Part shown: positions 1 to 46,981 of the stretch, piece by piece
Layout: every line of letters starts with the position of its first letter
How positions within the stretch are numbered: position 1 is the first letter of the stretch
Assembly (NCBI GenBank): GCA_965655095.1
Contig: OZ296649.1
Coordinates: 46,252,001-46,316,000, forward strand
Origin: Haplodiscus bocki
Taxonomy: Eukaryota
Direction: 5' to 3'
DNA length: 64,000 bases
Made by a program: the position numbers and the translations under genes
Notes under the pieces: generated by a model
What the model saw: only the letters and a program-made list of their open reading frames with translations
Databases searched by the model: none
Told to the model about the DNA's origin: nothing

Positions 1-651
1 CACCGATGAACTGGTACATAGTTATTCATAGTAGTGCACATTCGATAATATAATTTCAAAAAATCATACAGCGCCAAAACATCTACACTATTATAAATCA
101 TCTCCCAAAAAGTTTTCTCGAGTCGCATACCCTCAACTCTAGTTGGCCAATAACCATCGACTTCTCTATGTAAATGTCTACCAGAATAAATATGTTTTTT
201 CCATTGTTCTTTTGTATAAAATCTGTCACAAATTTGACAATGTATGGTTAAAAATTACCTTTTACAAATTCTTATAAATCTATTCATTTTTTAAAATCAA
301 CGTTTCCATAGCCTGTGTTAATTCTTCTACTTTTCTGTTAAGATCTTTTATTTGTTGTGCATGAGATTTTCTGTTTTGCTGATTTAATTTAGGTTTTGCA
401 AGTAACACATCTCTATTTTTTTCATAATACCTTTTTCTTTGTTCTGATAATTTATCTTTGTTCTCATATTAACGTTTCATACTTCGTTGAATGATGCATG
501 GATTGCATTCTCGATATTTGTTGTAAAATTTATCAATACTTTTTTTCAGTATTGCAAACAACACAAACTTTACTTTCCATTTTATTTAATATGTTTTATT
601 GAATTGTTATTTTCTATTTCAATAAATTCATCCTGTATCAATAGGAGCGAA

Positions 652-4329: not shown

Positions 4330-4370
4330 ATTTTATATGATTATCCATACCAAATCTGTGGATTTTTATC

Positions 4371-4655
4371 CTATACTACAACCATTGTCATTATCTTTAA
4401 TCTCTGAAATTTTTGTACTATAGGAAGAAAAAAATCTTTATTTTCACTATTTATCACCAAGTGCCTATGTTGTTTAATAACTTCAACTTTGTTTAAGAAA
4501 TCGATATCGATATTATTATTATAAACATGATAACTTAAACAATGAATCATTTTTACTAAATTATTAACAATAACTTGATCTTCATCTTTATCAGTTTTCA
4601 AATTTCCTAATTCCTTGGTTATTTCTTCATATAAACCTTGTATTATAGTTGGCAT
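4371..4655 (-). CDS. Small hypothetical protein in element A
   Basis: Uninterrupted 94-aa ATG ORF convergent with pPolB; no recognised motif. Confidence 0.4.
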   Translation of the reverse strand: MPTIIQGLYEEITKELGNLKTDKDEDQVIVNNLVKMIHCLSYHVYNNNIDIDFLNKVEVIKQHRHLVINSENKDFFLPIVQKFQRLKIMTMVVV

Positions 4656-4703
4656 TCTTAATTTATAATATTTATTTCAATGATAAAATTTGAATATCTT
4701 ATA

Positions 4704-5230
4704 ATGTTTATTGAACAAATAATTTGTTTCTAATAACTGAATGAAAACGATTTATTTTTTGTTGAGGAATTTGATTTTGATACCCCGTCTTGTAGTGAAA
4801 TGGATTTTGTTTTGGACAGTTGTTTCAAAAATTGTCATAATAAATATTTTCATAAATTTAAATATGAATGTATATATGATATTAAATTTAAAAATATTGC
4901 GAATAATGGGGTGATCAATTTTGCAGTCAATGGTAAAAACATGGATTTGTACGATCTAAACAACAAATTAAAAGTTGCTCGAGAAAAATGTTTTATATTT
5001 ATACTTACAAAACAAACTCACGAAAAAAATTTATTCACATCAACGATATATAAATATAAGTCATTATTTAAAATATCGAATTCCTATGTACCTTAGACAA
5101 TTTTTCAGAGTAATATCTCAAACTCTTGATTATATTCAAACTTTTTGCAATGATTCAGATAATCCATTTCATTTTGCATGTCGTCGACGGTATTCATATA
5201 ATAATCCACAAGTGATATGGTATAGTTACA
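4704..5230 (+). pseudogene. Hypothetical element A gene, frameshifted
   Basis: Overlapping ORFs 4800-5096 and 4975-5277 join into one protein-like reading (CFKNCHNKYFHKFKYECIYDI...NPFHFAC). Confidence 0.45.
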
Positions 5231-5865
5231 CAAAGTCGAATACAACAAATAGTATAATTATTCGTATAATTGTATGAATACTATTTTTTTATTATGATAT
5301 AATACACGTTTCAAAGTTTTTTTCAAGTATTTTCATGTAAACTTTTTCAATAAAGTACATAATTACATTCAACTTTCAATTAGGTTTACGTCAGTTTTTA
5401 CTTGCAGTCAATCGGACAAATATTCATGGAGATATCCTCAAAAAACTATGTGCTAGTCATCATGCTAGTATGCATATTTCTCAGAAATCGTGCTTTCGGT
5501 TAGAACAAAAAATATCCAGTGGCCAACTTTCGTGTCTACCTTTTCAGCTGTCTATCAAGTGAGCATTCCTGGTGTGTATCCCCGTCGATCAATTCTGCTT
5601 TTTCAAGTTTCGTGATATAGACAGTTCCTCCTATAGCTTCATGGCAATGTACGACAAACGCCTGGGTATACGTAATAAGTAGTGAACCCCAAACACTACG
5701 GCAAGCCTTAAATTCATCGATGTCATTCTACAAATACCAATAGGAGGTGAAAAAGAAAAGGAGGCGAAAAAGAAAAGGAAGTACTAATTTTTGTGTGTAA
5801 TTTTTTCAGCATCGCTTCAACGGAAAAACACACGTGCAAGTACATTTCACCATTGCTTCTCAACT

Positions 5866-5990
5866 CTACGTTCGCGTAAATGTGGAATTCTACATACACG
5901 CTTTCATACCTTTTACGTTCACATAAATGAGGAATTATACACACATTTTACGTTCGCATAAATGTGGAATTATATATACACGCTTTCTTA
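5866..5990. repeat. Three imperfect 35-45 bp tandem repeats in the subterminal region of element A
   Basis: Core TACGTTCRCRTAAATGWGGAATT at about 5868, 5914 and 5949. Confidence 0.85.
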
Positions 5991-8142
5991 CATTTATACG
6001 GTGGAGAAGAACAGGTAAGGTAAAATTTTTTTTCAATTCCTGTGGTACGTGATTTAGGTGCGTCCGCGTCTTTTGGCGTCAAATGCCCGTCTACACACTA
6101 CTGTTGTGATTATTTTTCGGTCCGTTTTGATCAATCAGCGTGCGTTCTGCATGCTTTCGTTACGTTTGAAGCTACTAACCTGCTGCCATCAGTTCGAATT
6201 TATTGTTGGTAAAATTTTCCGTTGACCATAATATAACAAAGTTAATGGACAGTGCGCATATAAACCTCAGTCAAATAAAACAATATGTCTGAACTACAAT
6301 CAAATTTTATGTTTAGTGAGACTCCCCAGTTTGAACATTGAACTCATACGTTGTCGTTTCTGGTCTTTTATGAAAACAAGAAAGCCATACACTGAACCAT
6401 GAAGAAAAAGAGACGTCGAGACCTTCATAAAAAGTCCATAAAAATGTGCAATTTCTTACTTTTGTGGCTTCATGCAACCATTGTAGGACTCGACTATTAG
6501 CAAATTTTCCTCCAAATTATTGTATTTTTGGAGCTTGTTTTCACTTTTTTTGTTCATTCGAGGCCCATTTTGCACTAGCTCGTTGGTGGCCCTCTGAGTG
6601 GCAAGTGCTTGAACTTGACCAGTTGAGACTAAACAGACGTCTTACAAACTGAATGTCACATTAAGATGCCACGACAATCATTCAATGTTTCAATGATCAG
6701 TAATGGTGGTTGTGGCTGTCATTTGAGGTTCTTTCATGATCTCGTTGAAGTCATTCAATGATCTTTATATGATGTCATGCGATTCAGTAACTGATCAGTA
6801 CGGTTTATGGTAGACACGCAATTTGTAAAATGGAAAAGGGTTGTCCTGAATGTCATTGCAAGATAATAAATTTCTGTTTGTATGGAAGTGGAGGGTCCAT
6901 TAACTGGACAGTGTATGAATTCCATGTTAAGTCAACCCGGGTCTTTTCAATTTCATGTTTGCTGGTCCTGTGATTTGTGAATCCACCTTCTGAATGATTT
7001 TGTATTTCTGACAAATACTGGCTTTCATTTTAATTCATCCAGAAAATCTGAAAGATTTATGAAAATCTATGGAATAGTAATTTATTTTAATTTATTCGCA
7101 GGGAACTTCGTATTTTGTTTTTACATGATGGCTGGTTTTCTTTTCGATTATGGTCTCGCTGTCGCACTCGGAAAAATGTTATTCAGTCGTCCGTTTATGA
7201 TCTTCAAGCTTTCTGACACTGCCGGTATAAATCTGTCGTCCCTGATTCATTTTTGTCATAACATTGATTGGCAAGTTAGCTAAGATTTTCAAGTAAGGTC
7301 TCCATAGACATAGTGCCTGAAAAATTATGAATTCAAACACTCAAGCAAAGCCTATACGTCTTTTTTGCACGCGTTAGTTGTTTTTCATTCAGGCATTAGT
7401 CTGTTCATTTCAGATATACCAAAATTTGTTTTTTTGTTCAAATGGATCAGGGATTCTAAAAATTTATGTGGATTTATTTGCACAATCACTTTTATAATTT
7501 TACAATAAATAATTCATAGCACACTTTTTTCCAGTAAACATAGTTTCCAAAAAACAAAAAAAAAATTGTTACGTCTAAAAAAATTGCATGCAACATCAAA
7601 TGAACCTGGCCCTCTCAACAAGAGGTTGCAACAGTTGAAACCTTTTCGAAACCTACTCACTTGAAGAAAATTGACAAATGGTTGATGAATATGAAACTTT
7701 GAAACATTGAGATCAATGTTGTTTGAAATTTTGAACACTGTAGTTCTTGTAGCTTGCAATAAGTTTTTTCAAAATAAATTTAATTCAATAATTTAGTGCA
7801 TGGGTGGAAAAAATGAAAATTAGAAAGAAATTAGACACCAAAAAGTAAAATCATTGATCAGAAGTAAGCAGTAAATATCAAATACTAGTATCCACTCTGT
7901 GGATACATTTATTAGCGGTTAATGCATTATATGGTTTTTCAATTTGGCGAAATGCAATGAACTATCTCAGAAATAAGCAATCAGAAACAAATTGTAAAAG
8001 TTTTAGGGTACTGAACTTTCGGCAGGTGCAATACTGTACCTTTTTTCCTTTCAGTTTGAATAGAAAGCTTCCAGAGCAGCAAATACCTTTTATTTTATCG
8101 CATTTTAAAAACTCTCAAACAATGTCAATTAGTGTTATCGAA

Positions 8143-12011: not shown

Positions 12012-12521
12012 AGTAATAAGAGTGTGAGTTGATCAGGTGGGGGAGTGCGGGGGGGGGGAGGTGTTGAAGGCTCCTCTATGAATTAAGATAGGCTATATAG
12101 AGCCGACTCGAGCCGAGAAGGGGCCTCCACCCTAGCCGATAGCTCTCGGGTGTCTTTCGGTGTAGTGATACTCGATTCTGATTGGCTGACAAAGTTTAGG
12201 GTTTTTCGTGCTCGATTCTGATTGGCTGGTGAGAGCTTTTCAGTTCTGGGTGAAATCCGGGTGTGTTCGGTAAAGTGTTAAGACAGGGAAAGGTAATCGG
12301 CAATGTATTAGTATAGGCTAAAGGTTTTCGCAATGTATAGAGAAAAAGAGTCGGGTTTAATGACTCATTTTCGCCAGTGTGAGACTTTTCGAGAATTTTT
12401 TTCGAATTATTTCTCGGGTGCACACCGTCGGGCAGATAAATACAACGACGCGGACTTAATATGACGCCGGCACCTAATTATAACGCCTGCGGTTATTTAT
12501 TACGCTTGCGGATACTGTTTT
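12012..12521 (+). repeat. Left TIR of element B
   Basis: Colinear with the reverse complement of 29702-30186 (e.g. tatagagccgactcgagccgag, aaggggcctccaccctagc, taatgactcattttcg, gcggatactgtttt). Confidence 0.97.
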
Positions 12522-12611
12522 GATTTAATTCTATGTAAAAAGATTGATACAAAGTGTTAAAAAACCAATTAGAATCTATGAATACGAACACAGAGTTTTA
12601 AAGTGCCAATT

Positions 12612-15600
12612 TTACAATTGTAAGGGTTTTGTACGTGTTGCATCATCTTCTACAATTCTTTTGGGGGTAAAAATAGTACAATCTTTTCTCTGTTTATTCA
12701 TAGGTCGCCACGCCATGTTGAACTGTTCGATACCTTCTGTTGGTTGAAATTACGCTGACAGATTCATCCAGCACTTGGCAATTTTTTGTCATTGGTCCAT
12801 CACCACAGTCTGTCTTCTTGACCTTTGCTGCTAAACTTCCAACTTGTTTTTCTTTCAATCATAGCAACAATGCGTTTTACTGCAGAAACAAAACGTTTCT
12901 GTACATCTAATATCTTCTTTGAAGAGAGCTGATTCCCTCCTATCGTGTTTCTTGTGTGTGTTGCAACACATTCTCGGAAAAAAATGTCTGTTGGGTTGGC
13001 AGTGAAAGTGTCTCTGCAATCTCCCGAACGCATCGCTTTCCAATCGTCTTGATTTTCAGGGAAAATAACGTCTCCCATTTATTCTTCCGACGGAGCCAAG
13101 TAGAAGGAGTCTGTAGCCTTTTCAAGTTCTTCGTACTTGTCAGCGTCACAAAACTTCTCGAAGAAATTGTAGTAAAATTCCAATATTCTCTGTTTAGCAC
13201 ATTGTAGAATAAAAACCCAACAATGATCGCTTCTCTGTGCTCAATTTCAGGCTTTACCAGTTCAGCTTCGTACAGTTGGTCAATAATGGTATTGAGACGC
13301 TTGAACATTTTGCTATTTATCGCAATGTGTGTTTTTTCATCGTTTAAATACTTTGTCACAGTGTGTCGACTGCCATCCGTTATCTGATACCCATATGAGC
13401 TGTTAGCTAGCAATTTCATAGTCTAAGCCACAACACTGGAATTTGGATTTTCATCTCCTTGACGTCGTGCATTCACGGCAAACTGCACGAAGGTGTTGAA
13501 ACACTTTTTGGGAAATTTTGAACGAAACGATGAATTTTTTTGCACACCAGCCCAAGCTTCAAGTAGAAAAAAAGTAACGGGGTAACGAGCATTCTATTGG
13601 TTAGGTGGAAACTTGATATACGCATTCTTCTGGCCTGGGCCATGTTATTTTCCTTTCCTGCGTATTCTCTTATCAAAGTACCAATATATTCGCTACTGAC
13701 TACGGTATTTTTGATTATCGGAGGAAAGTTTGAAGAATAACGTCGCAGATGTTCGGGAACATCAATATCACCTTGAATGTATCCAAAGAGTTTCCCATCG
13801 ATAATTCCTTACCATAGTTGTTCTTCACTCACAGGACCTTTACAGGGAATATTCTCCTTGAGATGATTTTTGACTGACGCATCAGTTTTATAAAGACTCC
13901 ACCACCCACACTCCCACGTTTCAACGACTTGGAATCTTTTCTGTGGTATGTAATCTCTACGCATCTCGTCTTGATCCTTTTTCTTCACTCCCCTCTCAAT
14001 TTTTGCATCACTCAGAGAAACTCGTGCTTCTTGACAAAGACAATAATGATAATAACATTCCAAACCTCCAAAAACAGTTTTACAATGATTGAAAACTCCG
14101 TCTACAATGCAACAATCAATTTTCTTTTTTCGACCAGTGGTAACATTACTTTCAATTCTACAGTCCAGTTGAAGTCGTTGAAAATATGACAAGAGCATAT
14201 TCTCGAAGGAACGCGTTTTGTTTTGGTTCGGTATGAAGCGCTGGGTCTCACTCTCATCTTGTGTCGCCCATCTTGTATACAAACCAATAGGCATTGGTTG
14301 ACACATTGAGTAGAGATAAAGCTGTATGGCGTCAATTCCAACAAGAGACTTGCATAGATTCGTTGACTTCCGTACAAAAGTTTCATCCACCAGAGCTTTA
14401 CGTGAAAAGACTATGGACGGTCCTGTAACCATATCTTCTCGTGCTTTTGCCTTCAAATCTTTGTCCGTTTCGGTAAAAGGATAATATTTTGAATCTGTTG
14501 ATTTATGTACAGAAATATTGGTCAATTCTGGTAGTGGGCATCCAAGCTTTAACATATCAATCCTCTTGTTGTGGTAAAATTCAATCATTCTCTGCATCGC
14601 TTCCAATGTTGACAGAACATCTTTATTGTTATACCACTTGGGTAAATCTGCAAAAGATTACCTTTGCTCGTTATCCCAGATATTATGCAAATAGGCGTAA
14701 TTCTCTGCTGCAGTCGGAGGTACGTTGTCCATCCTAACTTGGCGAATGCTTTGTCTCTAGATAAACCACTTTGAACAAGGTTTTCAAAGAGGTTGCAGTT
14801 TTTTTAGGAGGGTTACTGTTGCGAAGAATGTTAAAGAAGGAGTCATACGGGTGAAGTTCTTTGTTGCTCAATTTCTCAGTACCATCGAACAATTCATAAA
14901 AGAAAAATCGTTTTGTCTCGTTAGGTTTGTAGCCTTTGACAAAAGATTTGCAATTCCTGGCCCCACCAAGGAAATTTATAATGCCAAGTAACAGGTTTTC
15001 ACCGAATTTGAAGGAAACAATTTGATTAGCCTTCCTTATAACTGTCAGTTTAATGTCTCGTTCCCAAACAAAAATGGGTAACAAATAAGATTTGATTGAA
15101 TTGAGATCATATTTTGCGCTGTTGAATACAAAGACTGGCAACACATTACATTGACGTTCAAAGTGTTCCTGTATATCGAATAATTGATGTTCCGCATTTA
15201 CAGGAACTGAGTAGTTAGGTCTTGTTCGTCAAAGTCAGCGACCGAGTTGTCTACAAAATCGATCACTGTTTCTGCTCGGTTGTGTCTTTGGTTCAGCTGT
15301 TCCAGTAATTTGAACAACTTTATCTTGATTGCTGTCTCAATTTCACTAAATTTCGTTTTCATCTGAGCTTTGCTTTGGGTAGCTAATCCTTCGAGAGCAG
15401 TAATAAAGAATGAGACGAGATGATGAAGTGTGTCATTGCAAAGAAAAATAGGTTCTTGGATCAATTTTGACGAAATAGAAACTGTTATCAGTACATGCTT
15501 CCCGATCATCTTTGTAGTCTCTGTCTCCTTGTATGAGTCCTCTTCAACACAAATCCACTCAAAATCATAAACAGCTAAATTTTTTTAACAACTTTTACTC

Positions 15601-16921
15601 TTTTTTGTAGGATACATTAAATGCATCTACTTTGTCAAAGAAAGTTTCTCTAAGCTTGCAAAGGTTCTTTAGGTAATTATCTTTCACGCTTTCACTGCAA
15701 GTAACTAAATGTCGTTCTAGATTACCGGTCTCTGGAAAAAACTTGTCACAAGTACTGAAACGGAAATTTTGAATATTGCGTTGATGTTGTTGACGTAACA
15801 AATGTGGTTGTTGTAACGTAAAAGCTTGATACTTTCGTCATTTTTCTGAATACTTCGACAAGCAAGTTCAGCATTGAGTTCTTCGTCAACGAAATATTTA
15901 TCATATGAAAAAGGCTGAGCTGCAACAAGTCTTCAACTTTTGGAATTTCGTTCATGTGAACACCTTGAACTTTTAAGGGATCTCCTTCCTCGCAGTTAGA
16001 GTTACAAAGAAAAAAAATTGAATTCGCCTCTTCCAAATTATCGTTATCATGCAAATGTAAAACAAAAGCTCGAAAAAAACAGAGGTTGTCATTGTAGGGT
16101 TTTCTCGTATTTCTCTCGTTAGTAAGACAGTTCACATTGTGGTTTTTCAAAAGGGGCTCAGGTAAAACAGTATCTTTACAACCCATGCGTGTATCTTTGT
16201 GTAACGAAGCAAAGACTGTAACTTTTGTAAGTTTATAACAGCTTCATTTAGTGTTAGTTTTTTCTCTTGTGGAATGATCAATAATATCTATTTTCTTCAA
16301 TTTTTCTTTCAGTTGAGCATAACATCCTGAGTAGACACAAATTTAGACCTCTTCAAAACTGTGTTGTTTTCGTGTGTATAAAAATATCTACACTATCCAG
16401 CTTCAATGTTTTTCAGTACAAATCCAAACAGAAGGTTGACTTTGGCTGCATATTTCAGTTGGTTGAGCACGCGATTTCTCGTTGAGGAATGAGTTGTTGA
16501 AGAAAGATATGAGGAAAATAAATACACAGTGCCTTCTTATTTCAAGTTCAGAGTAAACGGAAAATAATTGCGAGAAATAAGTTCTTCTTTTAATTCAACA
16601 GCATCTATGTCCTCCAGGAGAGTATCCATATCAAGATTGGATGTCTTTATCGGATTTTTGTGGTTTCGTAGCGCATGAAAGCTAGATAATTCGTCCATAC
16701 AAATTTTACGCTTTTAAGTGTTTTTTGCTCGCACTCTAGGATCTAATTTAGCTATGTGGTAATTCAAATCAACCTGAGAGATTGTTCAGTAGTTGGGATT
16801 TTAGTGCGCAAAAAAGTGTTCTAACGGATTATCTCGTCTTGTGTCGTACAGTGTTCCTCTTTGTAGTTTGTTTTCCACAGTTTTTCCAAGTCACTTTTTC
16901 AATGCGATTGAGACCAGGCAT
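12612..16921 (-). pseudogene. pPolB of element B with N-terminal C2H2-like fingers and a VSR-like nuclease insert
   Basis: YNDNLCFFRA, AVYDFEWICV (ExoI), VFNSAKYDL (ExoII), FFYE, GPSIVFSR, GIDAIQLYLYSM (motif A), KLLANSSYG (motif B), ELEKATDSFY (motif C relic), C-terminal KRIVEDD..TKPL. Many frameshifts. Confidence 0.95.
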
Positions 16922-17589
16922 ATCAGGAAAATGAATATAACAGTTCAGTCTGAAATCAACGTAAAGTTTTTTTTAGCAATTTAACTGTAGCAATGAAAAC
17001 AGTGTAAGGGCGAAAATTATCTAGCAGGTGTTACTCAATAAAATGTTACAGTATACGGAAGGAACATAAATGGAAAGACTAACCATAAAAAGAACTATCG
17101 CACATGCTGTCAATCACTTTCTTTCATGTCGCAAACCGACAGTATTTCTTTAAAATAATAGTTAAACCGGTTAGACAGCTTGTCTGTGAATGTCTTTTCG
17201 AAGGAAACAATTCCCATAAAATGGCGACAGACTCTCTGAGAAAAATATTCAAGTGGATTAACATCCCCAGACGTAGTGTCTTAGAAAATTCATCAAGTGG
17301 AACAAATTCCCTAACAAGGCAACAGAGAGTCTGAGAGATTTATTATGTTTGTCTTGTTAATTTTGGACTGAACTGTCAATCAAAAAAAGACTTCCGTGAA
17401 AGGAATAGAAATTGGAAATTTGCACAGTCATTGTGGTGTGTAGGTTAAAAACAATCGAACGGCAACATGAATGAGAGTATTCATCAGCAGATACATCTTG
17501 TGATCCGAAGCTCTTAACCATTAAAATGCAATTTCATATTTAATTATCGTAGGAGACATATTTGAATCTAACTGGTTGAAACAAAAGTG

Positions 17590-18321
17590 TTTCCATTGCT
17601 GAAAACTGAAATCCGTACCCAATTCTTATCGGTATACGCGACCGATGATTTCAGTGTTGCAAAATTTGCTAACTTAAAGAAATTGATCTCTGTCGAAAAG
17701 CAAATTCACAGTTTGTGCGAAAACTTCAATCTTTTTACGAAGAATTACCAGAGGAGATTTTGGACCAAATTGCCGTAGATTTTGTTTTATTTTTATTTTT
17801 TCACCACAATTTTGACATCTCCCAGGCCCAGCATCAAATAGTACGTGCTAGCAAAGGCTCCAACAAAAAATCTTTTGCAATCAAGTTGTTCGAAGTTTGC
17901 AGTTTAAAGACACAGCAGCGTTACATCCCGCAAGAAGAAGTGAAAATATCCAGAGGAGAACTCAATTCTGCGGTTAACAGTTTGCGCAATTTTCTCAAAA
18001 GCTTCGATAAAACGAGCAAGTGTTTACGAATTCCATTACCGAAACCCAAAAATGAGATTAGATTTACAACGTCAAAAGACAACCCCTTTGCACATTACTA
18101 TAACAATATTTTTGAACATCCAAAAAGATATATTCGTTTATCGTTCCACTTTTGAAACTACAATTCATGTGTCTGTCGTCAAAAAGTTTGAATGACACGG
18201 CAATCAATTTACTCAAAGAGAGAATGTCAACCTTAACCATCGCGAACTTCACCATCGCTACAAGAACCGATATTACGTTGCAAACAAGTATGAAATAAAT
18301 GAGAGCAACTACAATGTGTAG
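17590..18321 (+). pseudogene. Cargo gene, possible tandem PC4/whirly-like ssDNA-binding protein
   Basis: Two similar beta-rich-plus-helix units (KKSFAIKLFEVC..EEVKISRGELNS and IRLSFHF..KKFE..ENVNLNHRELHH). Fold assignment is inference. Confidence 0.35.
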
Positions 18322-18990
18322 TTCCTTCACCCATGATTCTCGGTGATTCTCGGTATGACAATAGCATTATTAAACATATTGAGATCGTGGTTTGCCCGAA
18401 CACATTAAACTTGTGTTCGTTTAAAATTTGCGTGCCTTTCAATCTTCCAGCAGAAGCAACTATCAATGTCCTTAATGCGAATCCATGTGTTAGCTGCTCA
18501 ATATTCCTTTGGAAGAACAAATAAAGTCGTCTTTCTTCAAGTTTGGTCCAGGGACTTATTTTTTTGGAGAGACGCAAAAATCAATTCAAGGTGTTATTGG
18601 TTGTATTGTATTCAAGATGTTGTGTGTTTTGTCCAACATGCCCAAACGAAAAGTGGGTCCACCTTTCAACCAACAAAACTTCCAGTTTCAACGACTGTAA
18701 AAAGTGCAAAGCCTCCTCTCACGTGCTGAATGTTCCTTTTATGGACCAAAAGCCAACAATTATGTTCTTTGGTGGTGATGGTACACATTGCTTTACAAGG
18801 AAAACGGCTCGTGACTTCAAACTTCAAAGAAGAAAAACCATATCCATTTTTGAGGAAGTTTCTCCGCCAATCACAATCAAGCACATCCGATCGTGAACCA
18901 AAAAAGGCAGAAATCATTCCATCTATGGCATAACCGTGTCGACTCTCCATTGATTGATACAGTTAACCAAAATTTCATTTCCATTCTCAT
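18320..18990 (-). pseudogene. Hypothetical Cys/Trp-rich cargo gene
   Basis: ORF 18666-18950 continues through stops in protein-like sequence; no family recognised. Confidence 0.3.
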
Positions 18991-19233
18991 TTTATACACT
19001 TTCAGTCTACAGTGAAGCAACATGATTTTCTCAGTGTCCAACAACGGTATTGAGTGGTCTCTCGACTATGGACCAAATTCAGTTACTCTGACTGTAAAAA
19101 TTTTGTCCATGAAGTGACAACAAATTCCCAAGAAACCCTTCTGGCAGCCTGGAGCTTGTTGTTGTCTCAATGACAAGACTTTCTGATTGGTCGTGTAGCG
19201 CGAGTTCCAATTACCCCCAACCAGGAAGGGACA

Positions 19234-19602
19234 ATGGAGATGAAGGATGAAGTGGTCTCCAGTGTAGGCTCACAATTTGTGGACACAAGCGGGTATCAGG
19301 TGTCTGATCTGGACGATGTTGAATTCTACTGGGAAAATGATCAGCTGGATGTAAACGCTGTCTTCAGACCAGGCATAGATACACCCTTTTCTTCTTCAAC
19401 TTTCAACGTTTTTGAGATAGGTTCAATGCCTGAAAACCCGAATCAGATTGACAAAGAGCAAGACAAGGAGGACTTTCTTCTTCATCCGACAGCTCCAATC
19501 TCTGAGAGACCAACCCAACCCCCTGTGTTGATGCGAAGTCGCGCTTTCGGAACAAAAATTGAGAATGTTCCCGATTGTGTTTACAGAAAATCGTTTGAAT
19601 AA
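19234..19602 (+). CDS. Acidic/proline-rich hypothetical protein (element B cargo)
   Basis: Intact 122-aa ATG ORF with biased composition. Confidence 0.5.
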   Translation: MEMKDEVVSSVGSQFVDTSGYQVSDLDDVEFYWENDQLDVNAVFRPGIDTPFSSSTFNVFEIGSMPENPNQIDKEQDKEDFLLHPTAPISERPTQPPVLMRSRAFGTKIENVPDCVYRKSFE

Positions 19603-20010
19603 TTTATAGTAAGACTGTTTATGCTTTCTAATATTAACTATATTTAAAATGTAGCATTTTATAGAAAACTTTTTTAAAAATTAGTCAAACATGTGTGAGA
19701 CAAAAACAGTTCTACTATCGTATATCAATGTTTTCACTAGTAGCAGGAAGTGTCTGCATACATCAAGCCCACACAGAGAAAAAAGTGGGATACCATCGCA
19801 AAATCAAAAGTGAAGGTCCTTGCAAAACGAGTACAAGAATAAAGGTTTAGTTGGCGGCGAATGCTTTTATCTAGTTGACAATGATATTGTAGGTTGTAAC
19901 TTTACAAAGTTATATGGAGGAAATCGATGTGGAAAGTACATGTGGTTGGACTGAGTGAGAATTTGGGACCAAAAAATTGAAAAACTTTTAATAAATTTTA
20001 TGACAGGTAA

Positions 20011-20416
20011 AAATTTTTCAGTTCAAAATCTGACAAGACGAAAATATTGTAATTCAAAATGGGACGCGACGCGTTGTGAAAGTTACAATTCAAAAACTGA
20101 CGCGCTGTAAGAACTTTAATTCCAAAATTTAGCGCGTTGTTCTTTTTTCTAAAATTAATATCCTGGCACGTTGCAAAGTTTCAAATTCAAAATCATGCTT
20201 TTTAAAATAGCACAAAAATGGCAAAATATGTCGTTTTCACGGATTAGTGTTAGCCAAAATGTGATCTTTTTTAGGCAATATTTTTTCAATTTGTGAAATG
20301 TCGAAACTTTTTAAATTCAATACCTAACGCGTCCTAAACTTTTTGTTTCAAAACCTGACGCGTTGTATTTTTTCAAGTTTGAATTCTGACACGTTTTGAA
20401 ACTATTAATTCAAAAT
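20011..20416. repeat. Internal array of ~9-10 imperfect ~30-bp repeats, consensus AATTCAAAATCTGACGCGTTGTAA
   Basis: Units such as ttcaaaatctgacaagacg, attcaaaaactgacgcgctgtaa, ttccaaaatttagcgcgttgt, ttcaatacctaacgcgtcc and ttcaaaacctgacgcgttgta, in two blocks. Confidence 0.85.
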
Positions 20417-20799
20417 ATACTTTTTGAACTGTCTGTTCAGATTGTCGCTGATTCATTATCAAAGTGTTACCAACGTCAAAAAAACAACTAGTTGGAAAAT
20501 GACAACAGTCTGGGATAAAACCATTTTTATGAGTGTGTGGCATGTGTTTGTCTCACTTCTGGTACTATTTTCTGCTTGTTGCGTTCTATATGGCAATTGG
20601 TTTCTTGATGGGTGTAATGACTATATCGTTTGCATTACCAGTTGATTCATACAAGTCTTTTTGGACTTCAAAAATTGGTTAGTTTACAAAGATTTTATTT
20701 TAAAAGATACTAAATTACTAGTATAATCACCATGACCGTCTAGAAAATAAGACACATGTCTTTATCAAATTTAATTCAAACTTAGTCTTTTTAACTTGT

Positions 20800-21303
20800 T
20801 CAATTCTGTCTGCAAAAACTGATCCACTGGTTTGTGTCGATTATTTCATTGGAAGGGGCTCCACAAACGTCTTTGTACTTTTTCCTCAAGAGTCTCTTTT
20901 TCGCGATGCTGGGAGTTCTGTCCGTTCCTCTCTTTTGGTAGTTCAAATGAACTGCCTTCTGCACATTATCAAGGAGTTGTCCACCTTTGACGACAAATTT
21001 GTTATTGAATTGGTACTTGTAAAGTGTATACAAACAGTCCACATGTTGGTAGTGGAAACAGAATGCATCCAACTTTTGTAGCACCTCATTAAAGTCTCCT
21101 ATTAGTATACTGTGACATCTACAATTAGTTAAGAAGCACATCTTGTCACCATGATTACCAATACTGTCTTCTTTACTCACAATGTATTTTTCATATGTGT
21201 TTGCAGAAATAAAACCGCTGTTTTTTGAACACTTTTTATTAAAGCTGGGATTCACTTGTAACATTACAGCTGCCATCTTATTGTTGAGTCTTTTTCTGAA
21301 CAA
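20800..21303 (-). CDS. Hypothetical Cys/His-containing protein with basic C-terminus (element B cargo)
   Basis: Uninterrupted 167-codon ORF (ATG start MAAVML.. inside it); CFLTNCRCH, FCFHYQHVDC, KKRLLRKK. Confidence 0.55.
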   Translation of the reverse strand: MFRKRLNNKMAAVMLQVNPSFNKKCSKNSGFISANTYEKYIVSKEDSIGNHGDKMCFLTNCRCHSILIGDFNEVLQKLDAFCFHYQHVDCLYTLYKYQFNNKFVVKGGQLLDNVQKAVHLNYQKRGTDRTPSIAKKRLLRKKYKDVCGAPSNEIIDTNQWISFCRQN

Positions 21304-21544
21304 ATGAATCTGATCAGTAAAATACTCTTTTGAACATTTTTAAAAATCTACCTAGAATAGAAAGAGGCTCCATATATAGAAATGTCATGTGACAATGACC
21401 AAAAAAGGGAAAGAGTTTCCAAATATGGAAAGGTCGCGTGAAAATGACCAGAAAAATGGGCATATAAAAAACAAATCGCAGCTCCAAAATTATTGTTGAA
21501 CTTTCAGTCACAAAAAAAGGTCACTTGTTTCAGCTACCAGCTTT

Positions 21545-22140
21545 CTATCTCGTTCACCCAAGGCTTGCAACGATACTGCTTCCTTGGACAAGCTCACTCA
21601 TGCTGAATATTTGGACTTTGGCAAAGGCCGAGACAGATTTGGACATTATTCTTGATCCAAAAATGATTCCAACTAGTTCGATGTAAAACTCAAAGTTTTC
21701 ATAAAAAATGACAACAAAGAGTTCCAACTGGTGCAAAATCTTATCGTGGGAGAAGCAATTTCTAACGATATGATGAGACTGCAAAATAAGCCAACTGTTG
21801 CAGCAGAAAGGCTTGCTAGAGAGGGAAACTTGTCCGCAGTGCTGATACCTACATTATCCAGAGACAAGGAATAATAATTCAAACTGGCTCACATGGTGGT
21901 TGACATAGTGGATTGACCAAACGGAAAGATTTGTGTGACTCAGCTGCGGTACAGTATGGGCAAACCCGAATTTTCTAATGTACAATTCCAATTTTCTCCA
22001 AGAAAGAATGAGGACGAGAACTTTCAACAATTTGTCTAAGTGAAATATAAACTTGAAGAACTTAACAATCTACTTGAAGTAATGAATTCCCCATATGATA
22101 ATGTTATTGCTATTAAACCCATTTGTTCCTGCAAAAAGTA
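21545..22140 (+). pseudogene. Cargo gene, possible tandem PC4-like protein
   Basis: Read-through gives EYLDFGKGRDRFG..FDVKLKVFIKNDNKEFQLVQNLIVGEA.. and a second unit VVDIVD.PNGKICVTQLRY..; not represented in the ORF track because of stops. Confidence 0.45.
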
Positions 22141-23034
22141 ATTGCACTTAATTAAAGTTTATCATTTTTCTTTCTAACAGAGTCAGGATGATTTCGAACT
22201 TGGGAACTAAATGAGAACTCTTTTTGAATCTAAAATCAAAAACCGGACTTTATCGTGTTGTATTTAGAAGTCAAAAATTTATCACAAAAACTTATAAAAA
22301 CTGTAGTTGAAAGGCAACAATTGCCAGACATTGAAAAGACTGATTCCATAGAAGAAATTTCTTGCCTAGAATGGACAATATCTAGTGGTAGAAGAAAAAA
22401 ATTTGTGCAAACTTCAAGACTGATACAGACAATCTCAATATTGTCGTGTATCGCTACCGGAACAAATTGTATCTCAAAGATATTGAGGTTGATCTAAAGT
22501 TGACAGATCACCAGTTGCTCTGGGTAGAACGAATGTATTTATCGAGCTTCAGGGACATATTTCACAAGCACTGCATTGTACTGGATGGAACAACTAGTCA
22601 TAAATTAAACAACTTTTGTCAAGAATGGATGTTCCCTTTCTAACCAGCATTTTCTGATTGCAATCGGGACTAAAGTTGTCATTTGGACACAAAATTGCTC
22701 ACAACAACTTATTTTTAGGAGCATGTTTCTGTTGAGATTCTAGACTTTCATTACGTGAGATGAGCCAAAAAATTAAATTTAGCGTAACCTTTGGTTATGG
22801 TGACTCATACTTGGAGTTCGTATTTCGTCATTTCCAACTATTTAGACTACATGCAATATTACAAGATGCTGCTGGAGCAGTGAGAACACACATTGGCAAA
22901 AAGCCTGGCTACTGTTACATGAATGGAGGAGGTTTAAATTCATATTTGCTTGGTCACGTGACTTTACTACTCTTTAGCTTTTACGTAAAATTTTCCTGCC
23001 TTCCATTTTCAACACTCTCGTGTTTTGAAGCAGA

Positions 23035-23487
23035 ATGTCTTGCATTGTACTAGATATTGTGGTTGCACACAAAAAACGTTCATAAGCAGTTGGGAATTCT
23101 TATCGATGGGATTGTTCATGAATACTCATTTCGTCCTCCAAAATAGTACAAACCCACAAAGCAAGCAGTTTAGTGTACAAATAAGTCGGACGGATTTGTG
23201 TCAAACAATGGAAGTTTGCATTACAGTGAGCATCCAAAAACTCTTCCAGGACATGTAAAGGGTGAATATTTTGCTAAAGGATTAGAAGAATGCAAAATTT
23301 TTGCCAGTTCAATGGATAAAAAGTTGGAAAACTTGTGTGATCATGCGTGTCCCAAAGTTAAATATCTCGTTGATGAAAAATTGTGGATTTGCTGGAGTTC
23401 CCCATCAGATACAAGACCACACTTTACTCTGCAGAGCGCCAAGCAAAAGTGCTTGGTAACTCGATAATGCACCATTTAATGTTGTAA
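23035..23487 (+). pseudogene. Small DEDD-exonuclease-like Maverick accessory protein
   Basis: MSCIVLDI..., FRPPK..KPTKQA, GSLHYSE, YFAKGLEECK, ENLCDHACPKV, with a C-terminal HCAER-like motif; frameshifted. Confidence 0.55.
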
Positions 23488-23606
23488 AGTTTGTATTGTG
23501 AAATTTAATGTCAGTATCTATTTATTACTTGATAGTTGAATTTTTTGAAACATTATTCGATCTTTTACTCAAGATTCATTAATGAGCGATTGAGCGTACA
23601 AAACAG

Positions 23607-23865
23607 ATGAGTGATCATGAAGATAATAATATTCTATGTAATATTGTTTTTGACGATAACAACCAGGAAAAATATTCGTGGTCCTGTTTGGGACAAACGT
23701 GTTCCAGAACTTTATTTGTCGTTTTGTCCCAACTTTTTCCTATCTCGTTGATTATCTTTGGTTGCTTTTGGAGAATTCGTCTTTCAAAAACTTGGCACGA
23801 ACTAACATTTTGGGTGAGAATTTTGTGAGTTCAGCTGGATAATTTTTACCAACACCAAGACTAGG
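23607..23865 (+). pseudogene. Small two-TM membrane protein upstream of the packaging ATPase
   Basis: WSCLGQTCSRTLFVVLSQLFPISLIIFGCFWRI..FWVRIL, then (frameshift) SSAG.FLPTPRL; two hydrophobic segments. Confidence 0.6.
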
Positions 23866-24613
23866 AACAAGTTATTTTCTGCCAAAAAATCGCGTTTTTT
23901 TTATCATTAGTTGTTCCGTCCCAGACGGGATATTCCCCACCTTTTTATAATTGGCTCGAAATTGCAACCTTTCAAACAAAACTTCACAAAATTTACCTTT
24001 TTCATCAACACTCCCAGCTACTTTACGATGTTATGCAAAAGGAGGTTGAAAATCTCGAGTTTGTTCGAGGTCTAAACTTTGAATTTCTAGACTCGTTAAA
24101 AAACAACGGTACAAAGTACTTGTGAATCTTTGACGATTCATGTGAAGAGATTTGCAACTCAAAAGTGTTTGTTGATTTTGCTAATATGTTGGAAGACATC
24201 GTGGATTGAGCACTTTTTACATTAAGCACAACCTGTTTCCTCAAAGCAAACTTGGCCGGGACGTTGAGCTCCAGAACACGCACATTGTTCTTTTCAAATC
24301 TCCCCGTGATCTGAGGCAAGTCAGAACGCTTAGTGCACAATTGGGACTCAGATCACAGCTAGTTGATTGGTATCTAGGCGCAACATATGCTCCCTACGGT
24401 CTTTTACTGGTTGACTTGTCGCCACGAACAGACGATCGATTACGTTATTGTACAACCACCGGATCCATTTCCTCAAATTTTTACAACCCGGACCGACTGA
24501 AACAGGCAAAATTTTCAGACAATGAACACACAAATCTCTTTACTCTCCAAGTGTTCCAATCATTTTCCCACAAGCAAAATTCTTCTCCATCGGTCTTGCC
24601 AGAAAGTTTTTAA
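23863..24613 (+). pseudogene. A32/FtsK-like genome packaging ATPase
   Basis: Degenerate Walker A LVVPSQTGYS, Walker B IFDDS, GRHRGLS, HNLF, HIVLFKSPRD, PYGLLLVDLSP. Confidence 0.93.
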
Positions 24614-25236
24614 CAGGTTCCTCTGCGAATATATTTTATATCTTCTCGAAGGAAACCGGCAAAGCATAAAAAGACATCACGTAGCAACATTTCACAACGA
24701 ACTTCGATTGTATTCTCTAAAAAGAATCACTTGGAAGCAAAGAAGAGACGTTCTGGCCTCCGAAGAAGTGTTACAACTCATAAAAGTAATTAACCCTCCC
24801 ATCAATAACTTTTGTCTTGTTATGGAGCAGTTTGTTCTCGTCCCTATTTCTTTGTACAACATCAACAAGAGTTTGCATACTCAGGCAGCTACAAAGCAGG
24901 ACCTTCCAATGTACCAAGTTGAACAAAATCCCACGTACCAAATTAATTCGCCTTAAAAAAGAAATAAACAAAGAGCTGTTTGCCAAAGCAGACTCTTTGG
25001 TCGACAAATATTTGTCTTGCCCTTCTATCAAGCTCTCAAATTCGCGGACTTTAATTATGGCTGGTGTGGAAACAGAAGTTTTACTCTCAATTTTTGCCCA
25101 ACAGCTTCGCCGTATAAACGCAGACGTTCCATATATTTAATTTACTTTACTTGACGTTGCTGGTATATCCCCAACTCTTGTTCTGAATCAAAATTCCTAA
25201 CCCAAAGAGAGAGGAAACAGGGTCCCATTCAAAAGT
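24540..25236 (+). pseudogene. Two small Polinton-type conserved proteins between ATPase and integrase
   Basis: RFLCEYILYLLEGN..LRLYSLKRITWKQRRDVLAS pattern, followed by a MEQFVLVP.. ORF; frameshifted. Confidence 0.5.
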
Positions 25237-26124
25237 TGAACGGTTGTACAAAGGTTGTACACTCAGAGCGGTGCTGCTTATAGTTCTTTTCGCAATTTAG
25301 TGAAAGCTAGCAACTTACCCGTATCAAAGGTGAGACAATTGTTGCATTCAAAACACAAAGTTTACTCTTGCTACGCGTAAATTCAAGAGAATGAAGGCAT
25401 TTGCCAGATTCAAAAATGAAATTTCGTGCATGGACTTAGCATACGTGGATACGTTGATAAATTCTCCAAAGATATTATTCGTGTAAAGTATCTACTAGTT
25501 CGTCCAGGTCTCTTTGATAGAACTTTAGTTGTAAAAGGAATGAAAATAAAACATTTCGAAGAAACGGTTCGTGCAATTTTGAGAAAAATTACAAAAAAGA
25601 AACAACCCCAAGAATTTGGATCAACAAGTGAACAAAATTTGCTGGAGGGTTTGAAAAACAAAGCAAAACTGAAGGAATACAAATTTACCCTACGATGACT
25701 GAGACCACGGCTGCATTTGCTGAACGTACAATATGATCCTTGAAAAATAAACTTTACCGTTACATGGATATTTTTGGATAGAAGTACAATCACAAACTGT
25801 CTCGATTCATCACAACCATGAACTGCAGAAAAAAATGATCAATAGTCTTGACCAAAAAATGTCAAGACTTCTGACGTTTTGTCCATTCTGTAAAGCAAGC
25901 CACTACGAGAATGTAAAAAACCTAAGTTTAAGATTGGAGACAAAAATCGTCTCTCCAAATATGGCTTACCCTTCAGGAAGGGTTACAAGCCACAATTTAC
26001 GGTGGAAAAATGTGCAATTGTTGCAATTGCTTCCAGAAAACCTCCAACATAAACAATAAAGGACGAACAAGACTAGATTATCCCTGGTAAATTTTAGGGA
26101 AAAGAGTTGATCAAAGTCATTTAA
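25236..26124 (+). pseudogene. Retroviral-like (RVE, DDE) integrase of element B
   Basis: SCMDLAYVD, KYLLVR..LFDR, AAFAERTI.SLKNKLYRY, KPKFKIGD..RLSK..PFRKGYKPQFT, GKF..KELIKV. Confidence 0.93.
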
Positions 26125-26126
26125 CA

Positions 26127-26934
26127 ATGGAATCGTATACAACAGACATAGTTTCTAATGCACCTGCACACATTTTTCCACAAAATACACTCAGCTCTTT
26201 TACAAACTTTTTAACAGAGCAACTTAATCTGGAAGGTCAATGGGAGGTTATAATTTCGGAAAAATCTCACCCATTAATGTATCAAAATGTCACAGAGGGA
26301 AAATGTATGTTTTCTGATTAAAAAGTTTCAATGTCGTCTAAGTTTTACTATCTGGAAGCCGGTCTCTACCCTTCCATTAAGAATATTGTTGAAGCCATGA
26401 ACACTCTCATTCAAGAAAGACACAGTCACAGCGAAAACTGTATCACAGTTGAAGTTTCTCGAAGAACGCAAAAACTTGAGATTTACTTTGCAAATGAAGG
26501 ATCTGGTCTTACATTTTTTAGTATGGACCTGGTACACATTCTCGGTAGTAGTGTTGGAAATGAATTTGGAGTGATGTTGAGAAAGAAAGGACCGCACAAA
26601 CCAGAAATTGCCTACGACATTATCCGCATACACTCTCTCAAGTCATACACGGACTTGATTGAGTACAATATTGTTGGCAACCCAAAAGCCCCATTGATGC
26701 GCTACCTTCCTTTTCTTTCTTTCAACGCTCAAATTTGGAGACATTAAAACTACTAGACAGTAAAAAACTATCAAACTTTTAGCAACATGCAGTTCAGACC
26801 ACTGCTCAGAAAATCTTTTCATAGTATTCACATTGACGTGATTGTCACGAGCGTTGAAAAAAATACCCTTTGTATTTCTCGGTATAACTCGTCTTGTTCT
26901 GATTTTCAGAAAAGCCTCCAACATTCATTCCTAA
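26127..26934 (+). pseudogene. Minor capsid protein (penton) of element B
   Basis: SNA...FPQNTLSSFTNFL.EQLNLEGQWEV, GLYPSI, YTDLIEYNIVGNPKAPLMR, FHSIHID, IPFV, LVLIFRK. Confidence 0.9.
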
Positions 26935-26949
26935 CCTTAAAGAAGTGAC

Positions 26950-27320
26950 AAGATCGTTGCTCCAAGACAAGTAGAGATTCCATTCTATGGAGGTTTTGTG
27001 ACAACGTGAGCGTGGATTCGGTGCAGTTGCCCACATTATTGGGAGAACCACAATTCTTTTTTTGCGTATTTTTATAGTCTCGGCGGCAAAACCCGTGGAT
27101 GCTGACTTATTGGACTTTGCTGTGACGGAAGTTGCAGATATGTTTAGTGGTAGAAAAATTTTCAAGACAGCGATAAAGAGTGTGGGAAGACAAACTCTGA
27201 GAAATTAATTGGATAGTGATAGCAGGAAAAGGAGTGCAAGCAGAATAATTCCCACAAAATCTGCAAAACAAACTAGTTGGTCGCGAAAAGTCACTTTTAC
27301 AAACATCTCTCAAAATTTTT
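26950..27320 (+). pseudogene. Basic core/amphipathic virion protein (QRGxG-type)
   Basis: PFYGG..QRERGFGAVAHIIGRTTILFLR..AAK.., basic C-terminus; typical position between penton and MCP. Confidence 0.65.
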
Positions 27321-28675
27321 GTCGAGTATTTTTCGGTACCAAACTTTTGTGCCGCTTTTTGGAAATCTTGGACGGAAAGTCCCAGTAGTTGACTATGTTT
27401 TTGTCATCCCACGAACAAAAAAATTATCCTACCACCTCATTTGATGAAAACTGCACAGAGTTTCAATATAAAAGGGATCGGATTTAATACATTGACTTGA
27501 GACAGACGTACTTGGCTCTGAAACTGGAACTTGTGAAGGGTCGTGGTTACGAATTTTACAATAGGAAATAGGTAAAAAAGGAGCACAAAGAAGAAAGTAT
27601 AGTGAATGTGGAAACGGAGGAGGAGTTTGAGGCTCCAGACCTTTTCGTTACTCTTGTAAACAACATTTGGCACTCAATTTTTTTCAATGTTGAAGTGAAC
27701 ATCGGCAATCAGCAAATTTACAATTCAAATGGATTGCATACGCACAAGTCTTATTTTTACCACAAATTCAAGGGGGCCCTCTCTGAATACAAGACAGTTT
27801 TGTTTTGCGAGGAGGAGGACTATGAAGAATTTCCTGATGAATTTATAGAAGCGCCTTTATCTGAATTTTTTTTTCATAAGGAGAATGAAAATGCTTAGTA
27901 CACCCGATGGTTTCATGTTTTTTGTATGGCAAATTGGGTTTTGACTTTTGCTCCACTTCCGAATTGATATATCCAAATATGAAAAATAGGTTTTGACTGA
28001 TAAAAGCCAGACCTAAATTTTACATGATTAGCGACAACACCAACGTTAGTCTTGGAATTGTTGATTGCTACTTTACACTCGTCGTATTGCTCTCAAGGAT
28101 GATTATCGCAAGAAAAGAAAGAACGTGCTTGCCTATACTCATGTGGAATTCAATTACGTGGAGACTTTGGCAAAGACTTTCATCCTTCCTGCAAAACAAA
28201 ACCAGTTCATCCAAGAAAACGTTTTTAACAATGATCCATTTCGTCGAACTGCCATTGCAATGAATGCAAACTCTGTATTTACAAGATCGAACACTGAAAA
28301 TCTTTTCTCGTATCAGCAACTTGATCTCAGGCAAGTTAGAATATACCAAGGTGGTGAGCCAATTGTCGATTTTGATGCTGCAGATAATTGTCGCCTTCAT
28401 GTTACGACGGCGAAAGCAATGAACTTTCAAGATGATATCCCCCCAATTCCAATTGATAATATCAAAGACCGCTATGTACCAGTGTTTGATTTGACTTCAA
28501 TTCAAGATGCTACTGAAAATTGTCATTGCACAGAGAACTAGTTGGAGAACCACTGAGGCTGGGGCTAAATTTTACTTTTCCGCTAGAGCACGTTACTGTT
28601 CTCATTGTATTGGGAGAACGAATGTCTTCAGCTGCAGTTGACAAGTTTGTGTTGTTGGAAAAAAATTTAAAATGA
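27320..28675 (+). pseudogene. Major capsid protein (double jelly-roll) of element B
   Basis: YIDLRQTYLALK, VNNIWHSIFFNVEVNIGNQQI, LYGKL..DF....LIYPNM, LYTRRIAL, NVFNNDPFRRTAIAM, VFDLTS, LRLGLNFTFPL. Confidence 0.92.
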
Positions 28676-29058
28676 AAAGTGTTTCTATCCAGCAAATAAT
28701 CAACTGTATCCGACAACTCAGGTACGGGTACCGTGGTTCCTTTGCCTCTGACTATGTTCCAAATCTTGATATCGCCAATTTTACCATTATAAAAAGGCAA
28801 CCCAGTAATATGCAGGATGGCCATTGGATATTGATTGCAAAATTTTGTCACAAAGTGTATTTTGTAGGCACTCTCGGTCAAACCATTTTCCTGAAGCAGT
28901 GGTATACGCAGATGATGCCGCAGCCCCTGTAATCTCATCCCAGCATTTCCGGTTTCTACACGATATATGCAGCTTTTCATCAATTCAAGTTCCGACAAAA
29001 ATAAATTAGTGGAGTTCTCGATTTCAATTTAATTTCAAGTATAGCCAACTATATGTAG
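28672..29058 (+). pseudogene. Adenain-like cysteine maturation protease of element B
   Basis: YRGSFASD, GHWILI, YFVGTLG (from YFxDSLG), PL.SHPSISGFY (from Q..SVCGFY); catalytic residues partly mutated. Confidence 0.88.
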
Positions 29059-29390
29059 TAAATTAAATCCTTAAAAGTAATTGTGCAGGTTATACAATGT
29101 GTGCGTTATTATTTGTACTCTCTATTTTTTTTAAAGAATAATACAATCTTTTTACATAGCATTAAGTCAAAACAGTATCGTAAAAGAAAAAGATTGACAG
29201 CTCATTAGGTATTCCGTTTTGTGGTTGGGCTTTCCTTCTATGGTATTTCCATATATGGTATACTGTAATGGACAACACTTGCTACATATTTTCGCCATTA
29301 TTTCTTTTGCATTGCTACAGTGAAGTTGCTACAATCCGTAAACTTATTTCCAATTTTTCCGTTTAACTTCTATACTTTAATTTAAAATTT

Positions 29391-29680
29391 TACTGAAGTC
29401 GACCCAATCTTTATACATCACCGAAGTACAACCTATCTTAATACACTTTCGAGCGATACCCTATCTCAAAATATTACAGGTTTATACCCAATCTCAATAC
29501 CTTACCGAAGTATACCCTATCTTAGTACACTATCGAACTATACCCTATCTTCAAATATTACCCAACTATACTTTATCTTAGTACATTGCCGAATTAAACC
29601 CTATCTTAAAACACTACTAAGCTATACCCTATCTTAAAACATTACCGGAGTATACCCTATTTTAATACATTACCGAAGTA
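29391..29680. repeat. Tandem array of ~10 copies of a 28-bp unit (TACCGAAGTATACCCTATCTTAATACAT)
   Basis: Regular 28-bp periodicity of ccctatctt, directly inside the right TIR. Confidence 0.92.
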
Positions 29681-29701
29681 ACATTCCACATAGCAATAAC
29701 T

Positions 29702-30186
29702 GAAAACAGTATCCGCAGGCGTTATAAATAACCACAGGTGTCATATTTAGACCGCGCGGCTGTAATTATCCGCCCGGCATTGCGCACCCAAGAAAAAAGT
29801 GAACAAAATTTCTCGAAAATTCTCATGCTGTCGAAAATGAGTCATTAAAGCCGATTTCCTATCTTTATACATTGCGAAACCCTATAGCCTTTTCTAATAC
29901 ATTGCCGATTACCATTGCCTGTCTTAATACTTTACCGAAAACACTCGGATTTCAACCAGAACTGAAAAGTTCTCGGCAGCCAATCAGAGTCGCGCCTGAA
30001 AAACACTAAACTTCGTCAGGCAATCAGAATCGAGTATCATTACACTGAAAGACACCAGAGAGCTCTCAGCTAGGGTGGAGGCCCCTTCCCGGCTCTCGGC
30101 TCGAGTCGGCTCTCTATAGCCTATATTATTACATAGAGGGGCCTCCACCTCCCCTCCCCACCTGGTCAGCTCACACTGTTACAACT
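29702..30186 (-). repeat. Right TIR of element B
   Basis: Reverse complement of 12012-12521. Confidence 0.97.
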
Positions 30187-45807: not shown

Positions 45808-45815
45808 TGTGTATA

Positions 45816-46925: not shown

Positions 46926-46981
46926 AATTCTGAAATTTTGAGGCTCACTTTGTAATTGTATTGGTGTTTCTTGCCTGTTAA

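Follow-up and report, generated by a model that had tools for sequence, protein, structure and literature searches.

A non-coding repeat module at 20,020-20,426 of the window (the whole 64,000-nucleotide stretch of Haplodiscus bocki DNA analysed here) belongs to a Maverick/Polinton, Element B. It occupies a fixed position in this family, is built of two repeat blocks around a unique core, varies in unit number, and is both retained and exchanged by gene-poor dependents of the element. Its best explanation is, tentatively, a multi-site protein-docking platform, probably for a Maverick-encoded protein, which would favour copying or packaging.

Element B and the build of its repeat module

According to the accessible text of PMC8097293 and bioRxiv 10.1101/2023.08.22.554363, Mavericks/Polintons are elements of 18 kb with a protein-primed polymerase B (pPolB), an rve integrase, an A32 ATPase, a protease, terminal inverted repeats (TIRs) and a 6-bp TSD. 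By the definition given there, Element B is a Maverick: pPolB, rve integrase, packaging ATPase, TIRs and a 6-bp TSD (one mismatch) were found, the protease match is below the cut-off and the capsid genes are positional candidates. Pfam gave nothing useful on the broken ORFs of the window itself; genes were placed by tblastn with ORFs of sister copies, from which the hallmark families were also taken. The features of the element are as follows:

12,012-30,186, no strand: Element B, decayed Maverick/Polinton of 18,175 bp with ends and TSD
12,017-12,536, plus strand: left TIR, 79% to the right TIR
12,968-17,098, minus strand: broken protein-primed polymerase B gene (tblastn of sister ORFs; PF03175, E 4.8e-7 in sister L041)
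16,861-17,340, no strand: polymerase start and upstream region, an inner piece retained in the gene-poor family
19,691-19,954, plus strand: EGF-like secreted-ligand gene, adjacent to the array on its upstream side and broken here
20,020-20,183, plus strand: left block, five direct ~31-bp units (two to six in sisters)
20,184-20,282, plus strand: half unit and unique ~100-bp core, constant in length, in all 30 copies, without a stable hairpin
20,283-20,426, plus strand: right block, four units and a half unit (three to six in sisters)
20,436-20,443, plus strand: TTCAGATT motif, ~10 nt past the array end and ~61 nt before the next start codon
20,499-20,684 (end approximate), plus strand: small (~61 aa) hydrophobic ORF, likely a membrane protein, 3' of the array, broken here
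21,308-21,549 (approximate, mapped via L044), no strand: intergenic piece retained in the gene-poor family
23,886-24,781, plus strand: broken A32-type packaging ATPase gene (PF04665, E 2.8e-5 in L242, above the cut-off)
25,246-25,956, plus strand: broken rve integrase gene (PF00665, E 1.2e-10 in L234)
26,091-28,669, plus strand: two ORFs in the capsid-gene position, candidates by position only
28,651-29,100, plus strand: adenovirus-type protease gene (PF00770, E 0.005, below the cut-off)
29,687-30,180, minus strand: right TIR

The ORFs in the capsid-gene position had no Pfam or PDB match, and the small hydrophobic ORF had no Pfam match. In sister copies, the N-terminal part of the polymerase gave weak C2H2 zinc-finger matches below the cut-off. 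Pfam scans of the element ORFs showed no helicase-primase family, a PHROGs search gave no match better than E 0.02, and the poxvirus-type TAAATG was not seen at ORF starts of this Maverick family.

The EGF-like gene is an open six-cysteine frame in sister copies, and such frames were found in 24 loci, some of them overlapping. Its product, with a signal-peptide-like start and six cysteines, is of the EGF-receptor-ligand type; the protein of L147 (7421-7681, minus strand) matched EGF in the PDB at E 3.7e-7 and in Pfam at E 0.078 only. An EGF-like gene in a Maverick recalls the growth factors of poxviruses, and a literature search on Polinton and EGF returned unrelated work only.

Other repeats occur in and near the element. 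A 28-bp tandem array (29,390-29,681) at the right TIR of Element B is unrelated to the 31-bp module; since sister subfamilies have the 28-bp array in both TIRs, the two ends of Element B look like those of different subfamilies. A ~150-190-bp part of the polymerase-upstream region (about 16,970-17,190) recurs inverted beside the right TIR, at 29,183-29,368, and a 49-bp two-copy repeat is located at 21,360-21,456, in the intergenic piece that the dependents retain. A second TIR-bounded element of ~16 kb occupies positions 40,578-56,594 of the window, with its own short arrays at 43,163-43,224 and 47,991-48,093. It contains no units of the 31-bp module, and none similar to them were found in window regions 1-6,000 or 40,500-56,700.

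The module is situated 8.0 kb from the left end of Element B and 9.8 kb from the right, between the EGF-like ligand gene and the small membrane-protein gene, which confirms the non-coding gap far from the TIRs reported in the first-pass annotation. That annotation had described a single array of ~9-10 units at about three helical turns. The 31-bp period and a number of nine units held, but the units form two blocks around the ~100-bp core. Starts were assigned by match to the motif of the same annotation:

20,020, 20,051, 20,087, 20,119 and 20,153: unit starts of the left block
20,283 (degenerate), 20,314, 20,345 and 20,376: unit starts of the right block
20,184 and 20,407: half units
20,069, 20,327 and 20,358: the only exact ACGCGT hexamers of the array in the window

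Seven motif sites were counted in the array, against a mean of 0.04 (maximum 1) in 300 dinucleotide shuffles, a control that is partly circular since the motif was derived from the same data. Sister copies are the stronger proof: the block-core-block build recurs between the same flanks in 30 of the 30 best-matching loci (the window's own included), drawn from 40 scored of 4,891 candidates. Over these 30 copies, the period was exactly 31 bp in 158 of 201 gaps and 30-32 bp in 188. Each of the four full-length copies scanned holds one module cluster, and the motif is found nowhere else in the element.

Although the units had been presented as centred on ACGCGT, and some of them do contain the exact hexamer, this applies to only three of the nine units in the window and to 88 of 261 over the 30 copies. 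The most constant part of the unit is the A-tract/TCTGAC half, with a column identity of 0.83-0.95 versus 0.45 at the palindrome centre. Middle units are alike and edge units divergent, terminal units being mostly ACACGT and the first right unit often ACATGT. Among 249 units, hexamer variants in the inner two bases (ACACGT 46, ACGTGT 12, ACATGT 11) outnumber the rare ones in the outer bases (ATGCGT 3, ACGCAT 2), counts in which variants share descent and do not represent independent events. Symmetric pairing in these 249 units was 0.53-0.82 at the inner three pairs, followed by 0.34, 0.08 and 0.03.

The CpG observed/expected ratio was 0.84 in the window and 0.82 in Element B, and CpG decay is barely faster than that of the reverse dinucleotide (transitions in 211 of 1,968 at CpG columns versus 193 of 2,420 at GpC columns). 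Retention of the CpG palindrome, earlier considered noteworthy, is therefore unremarkable, and it was rejected as a sign of selection because CpG is hardly depleted in this DNA. A hairpin in the core was also rejected (z of -0.13, -0.15 and +1.42), and no strand-skew switch was seen at the array. Rfam gave no matches at E 0.1 in 19,500-21,000, and no exact unit match was found in viral_contigs or metagenome_contigs. In four DNA-type runs from four studies, short contigs cover the whole 3-kb stretch, none of them spanning the array.

Presence in the family, in gene-poor dependents and in satellites

The expectation that the array stands at the same position in other family copies was borne out. 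All 28 copies with both flanks, found by probes 2.6 and 7.5 kb away, carry it; both flanks were present in 12 of 19 loci for one distant probe and 16 of 20 for the other, the remaining 11 being truncated or rearranged. All 16 further elements examined from terminus to terminus, 12 of helper type and 4 dependents, have 6-bp TSDs (15 exact and one 5-of-6) and contain it too. They come from 20 pairs of termini closer than 25 kb, taken from the first 100 of the 3,713 exact matches to the terminus genome-wide; termini without a partner and three pairs 33-36 kb apart were set aside. The other four of the 20 pairs also hold the array, three of them having been fetched via array matches. All 20 pairs span 11.7-20.7 kb, which fits a size limit, and no short MITE-like derivatives below 11.7 kb were found among them. 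The array is kept across subfamilies that are only 67-80% alike. Locus pair L175/L176 was considered as an array-less young element and rejected, since arrays of the helper type are present in the middle of it, in both arms. These data support the array as a constant internal component of the family, for which no empty-site allele was found. The degree of conservation of the module was not above that of its neighbours (core 0.87, blocks 0.79-0.81, genes 0.78-0.88, other intergenic sequence 0.81-0.85).

A gene-poor family, represented by 994 matches of an 18-mer probe, retains the ends, the polymerase-upstream piece, the intergenic piece and the module, the core genes being absent. Many of its elements are arranged head-to-head, as indicated by 23 converging probe pairs in the first 100 of the 994 matches. 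The head-to-head elements (L081/L082, L177-L188, L239/L240, L245/L246 and L255-L258) are 11.7-20.7 kb long, with Maverick ends, 6-bp TSDs and arms 92-99.5% alike. Ten converging pairs were fetched; seven had both ends and TSDs (12.7-18.2 kb), and the module was found in both arms in five and in one arm in five. It was present in 16 of 20 hand-picked loci from the probe matches; of the remaining four, three are truncated at or before the module, and in the fourth the dependent runs into a helper stretch that brings the helper's own array. Seven dependent arms were without the array and no examined element lacked it in both arms, an outcome expected by chance about half the time; the cases are too few for a verdict on a requirement that at least one arm keep it.

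In the dependents, the array is located 5.6-6.2 kb from the end, between converging ORFs and not before a start, and no conserved frame begins directly after it. Their own ORF showed a median dN/dS of 0.52 (10 pairs of 5 frames), indicating weak purifying selection. The array was mostly rejected as the fold-back point of the palindromes, since most joints lie 1.2-1.7 kb beyond it, near 28-bp arrays.

When compared in equal 110-bp windows, the core of the dependents was 89% like the best helper (median of 17 copies), helpers being 90% like each other (19 copies), whereas the other inner pieces shared by the dependents reached 66-75%, against 87-94% among helpers (n=9). Both helper core variants occur in the dependents, and two different junctions join dependents to a helper stretch including the helper's array (L175/L191 for one; L240 and L165 for the other).

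Genome-wide, the 20-mer unit had 4,208 exact matches and the 23-mer core had 349. The places examined outside full-length copies were either gene-poor Maverick dependents or satellites derived from the module and its flanks. Tandem arrays with the module have units of 1.8, 1.21 and 0.6 kb, besides an old satellite of ~180 kb, and four separate module-built arrays or satellites have different flanks (C1:1.72-1.90 Mb, C1:69.55-69.74 Mb, C2:5.25-5.28 Mb and C3:12.33-12.36 Mb). Tandem runs without the module were found as well (3.29-kb unit x5, 2.4-kb x3, 4.7-kb x2, 1.65-kb and 2.3-kb), and control probes also gave short tandem runs of other segments, with none in 100 matches of a third probe. Since three of the four module arrays were found with module probes, enrichment of the module in tandem arrays cannot be inferred. 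The 31-bp period appears in the satellites in 366 of 473 and 115 of 192 gaps, and the outer AC is kept in 83-88% of element units, 54% of units in the old satellite and 85% in the young one. The module is also locally duplicated in L141, L149 and L150, and some hybrids have their joint in it or close by.

Possible functions of the module

A docking signal is consistent with the lack of any array loss in the 28 and 16 copies, with retention by the dependents, with a core that tracks the helpers, and with hexamer changes that spare the outer AC and GT. A protein supplied by the helper would bind the repeats, and the three helical turns per unit would put its sites on one face of the DNA. The module would then benefit any DNA molecule carrying it in an extrachromosomal phase, and unit number would drift through slippage in strand-displacement copying. 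It would not act as the primary origin, a role that the ends would serve; in Polintons, the primary replication origin is expected at the ends. Pfam and PHROGs scans of the element ORFs identified no binding protein. The 31-bp period shows no constraint, because it persists in satellites free of element-level selection, and the difference between edge and middle units is what slippage gives in any array. Since the dependents probably have a single founder, their retention of the module amounts to few events, and a size limit alone would keep the array, given its distance from the end. Easy crossover at the repeats, or a sample that missed the helper lineage from which the other inner pieces came (yardstick n=9), could account for the higher core identity.

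An internal repeat module, an EGF-like gene and palindromic gene-poor dependents are not described for Mavericks/Polintons in the accessible text of PMC8097293 and bioRxiv 10.1101/2023.08.22.554363. In the available part of PMC11296320, cis functions are discussed for inverted repeats only, and the 'non-autonomous polintons' in that of PMC5499653 are Tlr1, which is different from the gene-poor dependents found here. No literature report of an internal repeat module or of palindromic dependents in Mavericks was found, supplements, Repbase entries and most subscription papers being outside the scope of the search; within that scope, the first-pass annotation was right that the array is not a standard Maverick feature.

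The closest working model is the EBV oriP family of repeats, a nucleosome-free platform of 30-bp units bound by a viral protein (PMC4934754, accessible text). Both have one internal array of ~30-bp direct units, but no EBNA1-like protein was found here, the symmetric core is shorter, and the element is linear and integrating and not a circular episome. Judging from this comparison, the module may work like the EBV family of repeats without being a member of it.

Protein-primed linear replicons give rise to defective palindromes, such as the pGKL1 palindromes and snap-back virus genomes. The dependents are like these in their head-to-head arms, helper dependence and kept cis signals, and unlike them in that they are integrated, flanked by 6-bp TSDs, at many hundreds of sites and have their own ORFs.

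As in the adenovirus A-repeats, the units are helically phased and A/T-rich with CG, and the lineage is related and has a packaging ATPase; however, the units are 31 and not 21 bp long and lie 8.0 kb from the nearer end, whereas the adenovirus packaging signal must be within about 600 bp of the genome end (PMC5033970, accessible text). The TTTG-N8-CG motif had 3 matches in 30 arrays. Baculovirus hrs, as described in the available text of PMC6669502, consist of imperfect palindromes of 30 bp; they occur at several sites and are bound by IE-1. The module also has ~30-bp, A/T-rich, non-coding units that vary in number and recombine, but these are direct repeats at one site per element, split by a unique core, and their pairing collapses beyond the 6-bp symmetric centre, so that the likeness to hrs proposed at first did not hold.

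The proposed link to the fungal MCB box also failed. This box is ACGCGT and is bound by KilA-N/APSES proteins; animals are not known to have MBF. The hexamer is shared, but here by only about a third of the units, and no KilA-N/APSES match was found with Pfam in 54 ORFs of young copies or in 42 earlier element ORFs.

It is possible, though doubtful, that the module is a functionless, recombination-prone minisatellite, which arose once in the spacer, was reshaped by slippage and rides along. For the dependents, the same degree of doubt applies to its account of the repeats as easy template-switch points located inside the needed length. Conservation no higher than in neighbouring sequence, the period kept in satellites, the classic edge-versus-middle pattern, the local duplications, the hybrids joined at or near the module and the tandem amplification common throughout the Maverick family all agree with it. 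The presence of the array in every one of the 28 and the 16 copies, from subfamilies that differ by 30%, does not, and neither does the unique core, which separates the blocks at a constant length in all 30 loci. The better preservation of the outer AC in elements than in the old satellite (with the young satellite at the level of the elements) and the position of most fold-back joints, well beyond the array, point in the same direction.

An enhancer or promoter-proximal array for host transcription factors, driving the accessory genes or the whole element, is similarly possible, though doubtful; the TGAC-type cores would be placed in phased A/T tracts, likely nucleosome-poor. The intergenic position close to the TTCAGATT motif and the next start codon suits it, as do the tolerated variation in unit number and the composition of the array, 73% A+T with an A-tract phase of 10.3-10.5 bp (obtained without a shuffle control). 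The TTCAGATT motif, which also precedes the polymerase and one other gene, may be an initiator or a splice acceptor. Viral repeat arrays often act as enhancers, as described in the accessible text on the EBV family of repeats (PMC4934754) and on hrs (PMC6669502), and the ORF of the dependents, under weak purifying selection, may need transcription. Against this, no conserved frame begins directly after the array in the dependents, a site bound by host factors would have no need to follow the helper lineage in the way the core does, and the motif occurs nowhere else in the element.

An internal replication origin, of the baculovirus hr or non-hr type, is very improbable. The module is part of each of the four longest tandem arrays found, whose joints differ, and the dependents retain it; defective baculoviruses reportedly carry reiterated origins, as the title of a paper cited in PMC6669502 has it. 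However, three of the four arrays came from module searches and module-free tandem runs exist, the module is a single site that is not palindromic and has neither hairpin nor skew switch, and the element encodes a protein-primed polymerase, with no helicase-primase family seen. Insertion of an independent MITE or host minisatellite can be practically dismissed. Genome-wide occurrence, part of what the first-pass annotation would have taken as a refutation, was indeed found (4,208 exact 20-mer matches, many away from full-length copies), but there were no empty sites among 28 copies and no inverted ends at the array, and the outside places examined were Maverick dependents or module-derived satellites.

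Implications for Maverick biology

Maverick particles have not been observed, according to the accessible text of PMC8097293. What is known of animal Mavericks comes almost entirely from their genes. Dependents without core genes show which sequences may matter in cis, and the module is the clearest inner candidate among them; it is short, can be cloned alone and lends itself to assays of protein binding and enhancer activity. The palindromic dependents, and the lengths over which complete elements range, are also relevant to whether particles form. Even a neutral module would clearly exemplify how a stretch of Maverick DNA can seed several large satellites, something that other Maverick parts do too.

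A further-reaching form of the docking explanation is rather unlikely as a whole. It holds that the module would be recognised by the helper, making it the first cis signal of an animal Maverick outside the terminal repeats, and that it would let gene-poor, capsid-sized, head-to-head satellites parasitise a Maverick bearing an EGF-receptor-type growth factor gene, while these satellites would keep re-acquiring the current helper version. If true, such re-acquisition would point to a packaged virus stage.
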